A stretch of DNA of 64,000 nt. It comes from Thermodesulfobacteriota bacterium. GTDB taxonomy: Bacteria > Desulfobacterota > Desulfarculia > JACQYL01. Location of the stretch: NCBI GenBank assembly GCA_963675595.2, contig CAXXLZ010000002.1, positions 2,624,001-2,688,000 of the forward strand, given 5' to 3'. Position 1 is the first letter of the stretch. Every line of letters begins with the position of its first letter. The notes under the pieces are model-generated. The model worked only from the letters and a program-made list of their open reading frames with translations, was not told the DNA's origin and searched no databases. Both the position numbers and the translations under genes were made by a program. Shown piece by piece: positions 5,983-7,592 of this stretch.

Positions 5983-6400
5983 CAATCGTAGTTGTGACGC
6001 GTAGTTAAGAGGGATAAACACAAATTCGGGCAGATGAGGACGGCTTAATGAGAAGCGAAGCACGGCTCGAGGATCGCCTCCCCTGCTCGGAATCAGCGAC
6101 GGCCGACTCGCTCCAAGCGGTGAAGAGCCCACAGCCTCCGTATTGTGAGGATGGATAAGGCGAAACCGGTGGCGGAACTCCCGGCTCAATGAGTCGATAG
6201 ATTCTCTGCGTGGGGAAAAGGTGAACGAGCCCTATTCGGAAGCAACTGTGTTCTTTGTCAACTGAGTTGTTTGTCACTGATTCCTATGAAGCTGTAACAC
6301 GGCGCTTGCTAGGCGCGGCACGCGTGGGGCTGCCGCGCGCAAGCACCGCGCCACAGCAGACCACGGCAGCATCGGTTAACCGATGTGATACATAAACCGG

Positions 6401-7369
6401 TCAACTTAATGTGTCTTTGACACCGATTTCAGGCTGTTGGACGCGCCAATGAGTATTGGTTTTGACCATGCTGTTCAGTATGGTCAGAAGCTTACGCATA
6501 CAGGCAGTCATAGCCACTTTGTGCGCTTTTCCAGCTTTAGTAAGCCGTTGGTAGAAGGCTTTGATTACCGGGTTTGAACGGGTGGCGGACAAGGCGGCCA
6601 TGTGCAATACGGCCCGAATCTGGGCGCGGCCTCCCCAAATAGAGCGTTTCCCTCGCATCTTCCCGCTGTCACGATTCAGGGGAGCGACTCCCACCAGGGC
6701 GGCGATCTGCTTACGGTTCAATGCCCCGAGTTCGGGTAAGCGGGTCAGCAGAGTCGAGGAGAGAACGTGTCCCACTCCGGGCACACTTTGAAACAGAGCG
6801 TCTTTTTCCCGCCAAATGGGAGATGCCCGAATCGCCTTGCGGAGTTCCCGGTCCAAGTCCTCAAGGCGCTTCTGGAGCCACGAGATATGGGCCTGGATAT
6901 CCTTGTGCAGAGAGGAGTGAGCGCTTCGAAGACGGTTCTTCTCGGCGGTCAACATGGTTATGATTTGTCCACGCCGATCGGCCAGAGCAGTCAGCGCTCG
7001 CAGCTGGTCGTCCTTCAAAGGCCGAATTTGCGGCCGGACAGCCTGGGCGAAATGGGCCAGGACTGTGGCGTCTATGCGATCGGTTTTTGCCAGTATTCCT
7101 TTGGCCTTGGCAAAATTACGAACATGTCGTGCATTGACCACGGTCACATTCAACCCGGCTCCGGCCAAGGCGCTCGCCACCGGAGTCTCAAGCCCACCGG
7201 TAGCCTCCAAGACGATCATGGAGGGAGGAAGATTTTTGAGATGGTTGATTAAAGCATCAAAATCGGTTTCATGGTTGGTCATCGACCAGGCTTCCTCGCC
7301 GGGAACGACGGCGATTTCAAGCCGGTCCTTGGAGACATCGATTCCCACGAAACAGGTGATCTCGCCCAT
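6401..7369 (-). CDS. IS110 DEDD recombinase/transposase
   Basis: ATG at 7369 after GAGGAG; VGIDVSK (D), LEATG (E), KTDRID (DD), [12 protein letters not shown] (putative catalytic Ser), AMTACMRKL. Confidence 0.95.
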
Positions 7370-7384
7370 GATAACTCCTCTCGT

Positions 7385-7561
7385 ACCCAACCTTGCAGAT
7401 GCGGCCTTAAAAGGCCGGGCAACTGTACGGGTTATCTCGAGGAAGGACATGACGGCCCAAGCTTCCAAACGGAGTCCATTTCTCCTGGGGGTCCGGCGGC
7501 CTGTCATGTCCGTGACCAACTTTGCGGGTCATGCCGTCTTCCATTAAGTATGAAAGATGGC
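7385..7561 (-). ncRNA. Predicted bridge RNA of the IS110 element (ends approximate)
   Basis: Target loop closed by GGACATGAC/GTCATGTCC with guides at 7487-7494 and 7462-7469; donor loop with guides at 7419-7426 and 7392-7397; all match the reconstructed target or donor. Confidence 0.85.
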
Positions 7562-7592
7562 ATGCTAAATATACAAGGGGGTCCGGATTGGA

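Follow-up and report, generated by a model that had tools for sequence, protein, structure and literature searches.

What kind of mobile element lies between positions 7577 and 6241 of this 64,000-nucleotide stretch of a Thermodesulfobacteriota contig (CAXXLZ010000002.1; the whole stretch is called the window below), and is its choice of insertion site written in an RNA of its own? A preliminary description, made from the letters of the stretch, had proposed an IS110 element with a decodable bridge RNA laid out as in IS621, the IS110-group bridge-RNA recombinase of Escherichia coli described by Durrant et al. 2024 and Hiraizumi et al. 2024 (PMC11208160, PMC11208158). We are confident that the segment is an intact and recently active insertion sequence of the IS110 group, most likely working like IS621. 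The junction strings, the stem arms and the four guide strings of the preliminary description were all found on the minus strand where it had placed them, and the outer parts of the element are as follows.

6241..7577, minus strand: the complete IS110-group element (1337 bp, counting the CT core at either end), defined by seven same-ended copies and the empty site of a relative.
7577-7576, minus strand: left CT core dinucleotide, from the junction strings and all copies.
6242-6241, minus strand: right CT core dinucleotide, from the junction strings and all copies.
7584-7578, minus strand: left target flank GGACCCC, 9 nt past the stop codon of the D-Ala-D-Ala ligase gene (ddl).
6236..6240, minus strand: right target flank TCCGA; the right junction reads TCCGAA (6240-6235).
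6243..6249, minus strand: left donor sequence ACAGTTG at the right end of the element.
7571..7575, minus strand: right donor sequence TGTAT at the left end of the element.

The host genome surveyed (6.79 Mb, 3 contigs) contained seven full-length copies of the 1337-bp segment. Five were identical, one carried 1 difference and one carried 15 differences, which all fall within the coding sequence, and the recombinase reading frame was open in all seven. CT was present at both ends of each copy and the flank became unrelated directly outside CT...CT. The limits 6241-7577 that had been proposed for the element were thus confirmed by seven copies with exactly these termini in different flanks, and by a relative's contig that skips the element, described below.

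The coding part of the element has two features.

6401..7369, minus strand: recombinase gene, 322 amino acids plus stop (product 7369-6404).
About 7381-7375, minus strand: GGAG-rich ribosome-binding site.

The product matched the Pfam domains DEDD_Tnp_IS110 (PF01548, 2.5e-25), for a RuvC-like N-terminal part, and Transposase_20 (PF02371, 1.4e-18), for a C-terminal Tnp part that holds the catalytic serine, and scored 231.2 bits against NCBIfam NF033542, the equivalog model 'IS110 family RNA-guided transposase', which has a cut-off of 140. Whole-length alignments were obtained with the IS621 recombinase (8wt6, E 4e-38, aligned region about 300 residues) and with the ISCro4 transposase (PDB 9t56, E 6e-38). 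Residues D11, E55, D97, D100 and S235, the last within NRDSG, aligned to D11, E60, D102, D105 and S241 of IS621, which are described as its catalytic residues (PMC11208158), and were invariant in an alignment of 22 relatives. The DEDD residues and the serine of RDSG are therefore kept, as had been read from the window, and the claim of an intact element is well supported. Among 40 other genomes of close relatives, just 2 had a homologue at E <= 1e-40 (46% and 39% identity), and no empty ddl site was obtained from them. The best match in a metagenome scan was 63% identical, and proteins at 84% and 75% identity exist without DNA context. The orthologue clade came mainly from uncultured Dehalococcoidia, Nitrospirota and related metagenome bins. 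Residues 134-293 of the protein, covering the coiled-coil and Tnp region, gave a sub-threshold match to the NCBIfam model of the TIGR-Tas RNA-guided endonuclease (30 bits, cut-off 100). The host genome also carried two further types of IS110-family transposase gene, with 5 and 8 matches (e.g. C2:4494868-4495311 and C2:477662-478090).

The 208-nt non-coding left end of the element was folded and gave z = -3.8, with 0 of 200 shuffles folding as well. The fold consisted of a 5' hairpin and two stem-loops bearing internal loops.

7531..7563, minus strand: 5' stem-loop of the predicted bridge RNA, from the fold; its position matches that described for the IS621 5' stem-loop.
7445..7511, minus strand: target-binding stem-loop with a 13-bp basal stem, a guide-bearing internal loop and a 4-bp inner hairpin (7485-7471).
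7511-7503 and 7453-7445, minus strand: arms of the target-loop stem, GGACATGAC and GTCATGTCC.
7385..7432, minus strand: donor-binding stem-loop with outer stem ACCC/GGGU and inner hairpin 7417-7402 (helices 3 and 5).

The region from the left end to the start codon was aligned across an orthologue set of 80 loci with 53-62% protein identity. Enough upstream sequence was present in 78 of them, 6 exact duplicates were dropped and four loci of aberrant length were omitted (L021, L029, L072 and L089), so that the structure alignment held 68 orthologue loci and the window, 69 left ends in all. From these RNAalifold predicted a 13-bp basal stem with a large internal loop, a 4-bp inner hairpin and a second stem-loop of the same design, with compensatory changes in 20 of 27 predicted pairs. 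The target stem-loop contributed 12 of 13 pairs in helix 1 and 3 of 4 pairs in helix 2. Paired cells reached 97.6% as compared to 37.8-45.0% with slid partners, double-change cells numbered 207 as compared to 11-41, and the observed pairing and covariation values were reached by 0 of 500 shuffles, bearing in mind that kinship among sequences can inflate covariation statistics. Helix 4, two pairs joining both donor guides, showed no compensatory change and was not counted as structure.

A covariance model built from the 69-sequence alignment matched the host genome at exactly the seven copies, upstream of the open reading frame and with 104.4 bits each. It also matched directly upstream of the two held-out homologues with 46% and 39% protein identity (67.6 and 64.1 bits) and upstream of the open reading frame in 76 of 80 metagenome loci, none of which were used in model building. 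A scan against Rfam returned no significant family, the best E-values being 2.2-5.5 for unrelated families. The Dehalococcoidia locus L021 held several model matches inside a span of 6 kb, full-length ones of 125, 73.6 and 26.5 bits and two partial ones of 29.8 and 25.5 bits, an arrangement that points to clustered or nested elements. Elsewhere in the host genome, 31 nt that resemble the target-loop stem (L010, C2:476742-476772) had no covariance-model match. They lie about 0.9 kb 3' of the DEDD-domain match of one third-type IS110-family gene, a position that hints at an IS1111-style right-end guide RNA.

The two internal loops and the bases that follow them were read as guides.

7487..7495, minus strand: left target guide CGGACCC + CC (register 1).
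7494-7487, minus strand: left target guide GGACCCCC, GGACCCC + C (register 2, that of the preliminary description).
7462..7469, minus strand: right target guide UUUGGAAG (DNA string TTTGGAAG), pairing with CT-TCCAA(A).
7419..7426, minus strand: left donor guide ACAGUUGC (DNA string ACAGTTGC), identical to the right-end ACAGTTG followed by the first core base.
7392..7400, minus strand: right donor guide AUCUGCAAG, pairing discontiguously with CT-TGTAT in the pattern described for IS621.
C7461 (after the right target guide) and G7391 (after the right donor guide), minus strand: handshake bases.

The right target guide pairs as UUGGA-AG (7468-7462), perhaps together with U7469, with CT-TCCAA(A). 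As had been said of TTTGGAAG, it forms one rU:dG pair with the target of the window copy, and covariation on this side was seen in two orthologue sets. The 8-nt left donor guide ACAGTTGC had likewise been read correctly and is exactly the arrangement described for IS621. On the right donor side the six bases TGCAAG (7397-7392) are present as described, and the IS621 structure gives instead a 9-nt discontiguous guide, AUCUGCAAG at 7400-7392, which meets CT-TGTAT with one G:T pair and two looped-out bases. The left target guide is the other point where the preliminary reading held in part: GGACCCCC matches the window copy at 8 of 8 positions, and its register is probably shifted by one base from CGGACCC + CC. 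The left side of the target loop before the inner hairpin, CCGGACCCCCA, is one base longer than in most orthologues, and register 1 results when the inner hairpin is taken as the anchor, with the spacing of 7 nt, 2 core bases and 1 spacer that the orthologues show.

The seven insertions were compared with both registers. Four copies lie in a dispersed repeat made of a 28-nt hairpin followed by the target, where they sit in CGGACCC-CT-TCC[A/C/T]A and fit register 1 at 7/7. One of these sites, L005, reads CGGACCC-CT-TCCAA and matches the guides at 12/12, while L001, L006 and L007 share CGGACCC and each depart from the guide at one right-flank base. With GGACCCC and TCCGA, the window copy fits register 2 at 7/7 and has one rU:dG pair in the right guide, L004 (GCACCCC, TTCAA) fits register 2 at 6/7, and L003 (CGATCCC, TCCAA) fits either register at 5/7. 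All 711,624 CT sites of the host genome, with the copies removed, were then scored against either register. The sole site scoring 12/12 was occupied, 10 sites scored at least 11 with 5 of them occupied, and 130 sites scored at least 10, including all seven copies. No unoccupied perfect 15-mer target was found in the host genome, and 59 unoccupied members of the target repeat family scored 10 or less at the homologous place.

The target repeat family is about 90 nt long, has at least 59 unoccupied members (e.g. C1:516357, C2:4229325 and C2:1947566) and is the main landing site. Its layout is a hairpin, GGGGAAACC..GGTTTCCCC, then a variable CCC(C/T)TTCC.AAAC box and then GAGCGGGTTGCTCGCTT.CGCGTCGCAACC. 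A second repeat family (GGGGAGGACTTTCGGGAAAGTCCTCCCC ... GTTGGACAGGCCTCACCGCC) flanks L004 and two right-end remnants of the element, L008 and L009. At the window copy a small potential hairpin on the minus strand (7585-7603, CCGGA-ctgatccaa-TCCGG) ends just before the left target ACCCC and echoes the hairpin-then-target layout of the repeat-family sites.

The repeat-family site was read as the cognate one because four copies fit it at 7/7, the only 12/12 site of the genome belongs to it and the hairpin-anchored orthologue alignment yields the same register. As judged from these sequences, the cognate target is probably CGGACCC-CT-TCCAA within a hairpin-bearing genomic repeat, and the window copy would be a near-cognate insertion shifted by one base and tolerated by guide slippage on the C5 run. 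The competing account that survives best is that of register 2, with GGACCCC-CT-TCC.A (five C) as the cognate target, GGACCCC + C as the guide, and the insertions into four-C repeats as the shifted ones. The 8/8 match of the window copy to GGACCCCC and the 6/7 match of L004 fit this account, and an orthologue alignment anchored on the 5' side of the loop gives register 1 no advantage. However, four of the seven copies and the only 12/12 site favor register 1, anchoring on the inner hairpin as in most orthologues leads to register 1 as well, and a guide in register 2 would have CA opposite the core and lack the spacer before the hairpin. We therefore consider register 2 rather unlikely as the true one.

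A third possibility combines the two, namely a looser rule than in IS621. With its C5 run and with no U facing the second core base, the left target guide may slip by one base and so serve both CGGACCC-CT and GGACCCC-CT, and a DNA hairpin 5' of the target may act as a second, structural layer of recognition like that reported for ISPpu10. Both registers are represented among the natural insertions, and a DNA hairpin stands directly 5' of the target at four of the seven copies and at both right-end remnants. We regard this rule as unlikely and hold it with less conviction than register 2. If both of its parts were true, specificity in this compact natural system would depend on the flexible register of the RNA together with the structure of the target DNA.

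Several observations weigh against the reading of the element as an IS621-like system with the guides given here. The left target guide of IS621 is described as pairing with both core bases (PMC11208158), and here C instead of U faces the second core base in both left guides, that for the target and that for the donor. CC at the core was found in just 5/54 and 1/36 orthologues of the two sets, as compared to CT in 31/54 and 18/36. The register of the left target guide is ambiguous by one base as a result of the longer target loop. Five CT sites at 11/12 carry no insertion, and the target score was built from guides first noticed at the window copy, so that for this copy it is not independent. 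The duplicated junction string is CTT, so a TT core may also fit the sequence alone.

That the copies reached their places by transposition is suggested by their flanks and by an empty site. Flanks of 1.5 kb gave a full-length match to their own locus alone, and the remaining matches were short dispersed repeats or, for L004, a separate multi-copy element. Contigs of four public runs were aligned to window positions 5800-8000. In run X4 a 13.6-kb contig of a related organism aligns with 5800-6241 and with 7582-8000 but lacks the 1340 bases between them (6242-7581). Its flanks are about 95% identical to the window, four other letters replace the element, and the empty site reads CCGGA-TCCT-T-TCCGAA in minus orientation, without the C run matched by the guide. 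Compared with the ancestral site predicted here, CCGGACCCCC-T-TCCGAA, the run X4 site differs exactly in the C run read by the guide. Near-identical element contigs were present in all four runs and ended at 6240 and 7580, as expected of a repeated element. Among the joints listed for these assembled contigs, in which a rare circle junction would not show up, none led from the right end back into the left end.

A very improbable alternative is that the element is no longer mobile and that its seven copies go back to duplicated host segments or to repeats that recombined with one another. Four copies lie inside one repeat family, which could recombine, and two decayed right-end remnants are present. 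However, beyond the own-locus match of each flank the remaining matches are only short repeats and the multi-copy element at L004, five copies are 100% identical with all seven reading frames open, the ends are exact at CT in every copy, and the element is also present in contigs from three other organisms or metagenomes, which break off at its ends. The L004 copy (C2:255974-257310) adjoins a separate multi-copy element, as 1138 nt of its left flank, stopping 11 nt short of the insertion point, recur with 99.8% identity at several other loci, including C2:529903-531040 and C2:550224-551361.

The two remnants and the right end share one further feature.

6291..6357, minus strand: long GC-rich hairpin in the right end, about 27 bp, fold z = -4.8.

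L008 (C2:1729092-1729169, minus strand) is the last 78 nt of the element at 92% identity and L009 (C2:734818-734890, plus strand) the last 73 nt at 85% identity. Each ends with ACAGTTG-CT, begins inside the GC hairpin and directly follows the hairpin of the second repeat family. By sequence they resemble old insertions from which all of the element before its position ~1260 has been lost. The right end of 160 nt is unusually long, and the element measures 1337 bp as compared to 1102-1267 bp in 59 orthologues in which both ends were located and the left-end motif had no mismatch. The extra length comes from the right end with its stable GC hairpin and from a longer 5' leader. The hairpin at 6357-6291 gave no match to the bridge-RNA covariance model; it could be a terminator or insulator ahead of the -35 box, or an acquired repeat. 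When the ends of the element were read by eye, no long terminal or subterminal inverted repeats were visible.

The pairing between guides and flanks was next followed through the orthologues. Loop positions were taken from the alignment; TTGTAT served to locate the left end of each element, and the sequence of the left donor guide with CT after it served to locate the right end. In the genome set 60 of 68 loci were usable and gave 54 distinct guide pairs, and 2000 permutations were made for each comparison. The 7 left-guide positions agreed with the left flank in 236/378 cases (permuted mean 127, maximum 155) and the 5 right-guide positions agreed, as complement, with the right flank in 250/270 cases (permuted mean 81, maximum 110). 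The metagenome set gave 159/252 on the left (permuted mean 93.9, maximum 117) and 201/230 on the right (permuted mean 64.4, maximum 98). On the left only the 5 bases next to the core matched (0.59-0.89), with the two outer positions at chance, and on the right five bases matched (0.87-0.98), with chance level beyond. The left donor guide was equal to the right-end 7-mer in 59 of 62 elements, the variants ACGGTTG and ACAGTCG included. The base after the right target guide paired with donor position 7 in 61/62 elements and with its own target in 2/62, and the base after the right donor guide paired with target position 7 in 60/62 and with its own donor in 2/62. This pairing of post-guide bases with the non-cognate partner is the handshake rule described for IS621 (PMC11208158). 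In the orthologue alignment the loops were variable and the stems conserved.

The least credible alternative is that the left-end structure is merely a leader regulating the transposase, that the protein picks the target and that the complementarity stems from coincidence or shared ancestry. Related sequences can indeed inflate covariation statistics, but in each of two independent sets the loops change along with the flanks at insertion sites that are unrelated to one another, and do so more than in any permutation. The loops vary while the stems stay conserved, and recombinases with demonstrated RNA guidance are homologous to the protein over its full length. The preliminary description had assigned the IS621 layout and guide order to this left end, and the fold, the covariation and guide-target matches above all permutations agree with the IS621 account on both. 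It had also proposed looking for other copies, for empty sites and for covariation of guides with targets. All seven copies fall within the 130 best of 711,624 CT sites, the run X4 contig joins the flanks without the element, and covariation exceeded all 2000 permutations in both orthologue sets.

An RNA from the left end would need a promoter, and the two halves of one lie at opposite ends of the element.

7568..7573, minus strand: -10 half TATATT in the left end, read at the in-silico circle junction.
6256..6261, minus strand: -35 half TTGACA in the right end, read at the in-silico circle junction.

When the right end was placed ahead of the left end in silico, the junction read TTGACA-17-TATATT. 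This mirrors IS621, for which excision is described as reconstituting the bridge-RNA promoter (PMC11208160, PMC11208158). Across the orthologues at least 5/6 of the -35 bases matched at the junction in 48/63 elements as compared to 1/63 in the integrated context, and no sigma-70-like site was found on the minus strand of the integrated window copy. The element lies between ddl upstream and a ClpB-type gene downstream, all three on the minus strand, and read-through from ddl, just upstream, could reach the window copy.

Together these data suggest the following course of events. Excision would connect the right end with the left across the CT core and so assemble the sigma-70 promoter TTGACA-17-TATATT. 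Transcription from it would yield a bridge RNA some 180 nt long, spanning about 7562 to 7380 in the left end. This RNA would be held by a tetramer of the 322-residue DEDD/Ser recombinase, its first internal loop reading the target and its second the circle junction. After top-strand exchange C7461 and G7391 would pair with the non-cognate partner, and the element would be inserted by recombination at the CT core. We infer transcription, RNA-protein binding, circle formation and recombination from homology, and by extrapolation from IS621 the loops may be reprogrammable.

Bridge recombinases are under development for programmable DNA insertion, inversion and excision, and each well-characterized orthologue widens the choice of scaffold. 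This element offers a complete parts list that can be checked, with its ends, the two promoter halves, four guides and two handshake bases, along with its seven natural targets and the empty site of a relative, and the same rules are visible in about 150 orthologue loci. In the host genome seven insertions are explained by it, and five of these lie within or next to repeat elements. The element is an ordinary further member of an established class of RNA-guided recombinases and not a new mechanism. The class is already known: covariation over thousands of orthologues was published by Durrant et al. (PMC11208160), and the NCBI model names the protein an RNA-guided transposase.

Compared with IS621 as described in the two papers cited at the outset, the element shares the domain order, the catalytic D-E-D-D and Ser and the CT core. 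The left-end bridge RNA runs in both from a 5' stem-loop to a target loop and a donor loop, and the guides follow in the order left target, right target, left donor, right donor. Also shared are the 8-nt left donor guide that covers the first core base only (A123-C130 in IS621), the 9-nt discontiguous right donor guide AU..GCAAG with its G:T pair against TGTAT, the handshake logic and the promoter split between right and left ends. It differs in many substitutions within the aligned protein region of about 300 residues and in a left target guide with CC at the core where IS621 has CU. The right target guide here spans 5-6 nt plus the core as compared to 2 nt plus the core reported for wild-type IS621, only about 5 left-flank positions covary in the clade, the effective left guide is shorter there, the right end of 160 nt carries a long GC hairpin, and the target is another host repeat. 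ISCro4 (PDB 9t56), compared by protein alone, is a full-length homologue (E 6e-38).

ISPpu10 of Pseudomonas putida is described as inserting into a conserved intergenic repeat with a stem-loop just 5' of the RNA-matched target (10.64898/2026.03.19.712850). In the same way four of the seven copies here directly follow the 28-nt hairpin repeat and the remnants follow the hairpin of the second family, whereas the other three copies lie outside the hairpin repeat family. IS1111-group elements are described as carrying their bridge RNA or seekRNA in the right end (PMC11208160). They share the recombinase family and the RNA-guided principle, whereas in the present element the RNA model matches nowhere but in the left end, and no long subterminal inverted repeats are visible.

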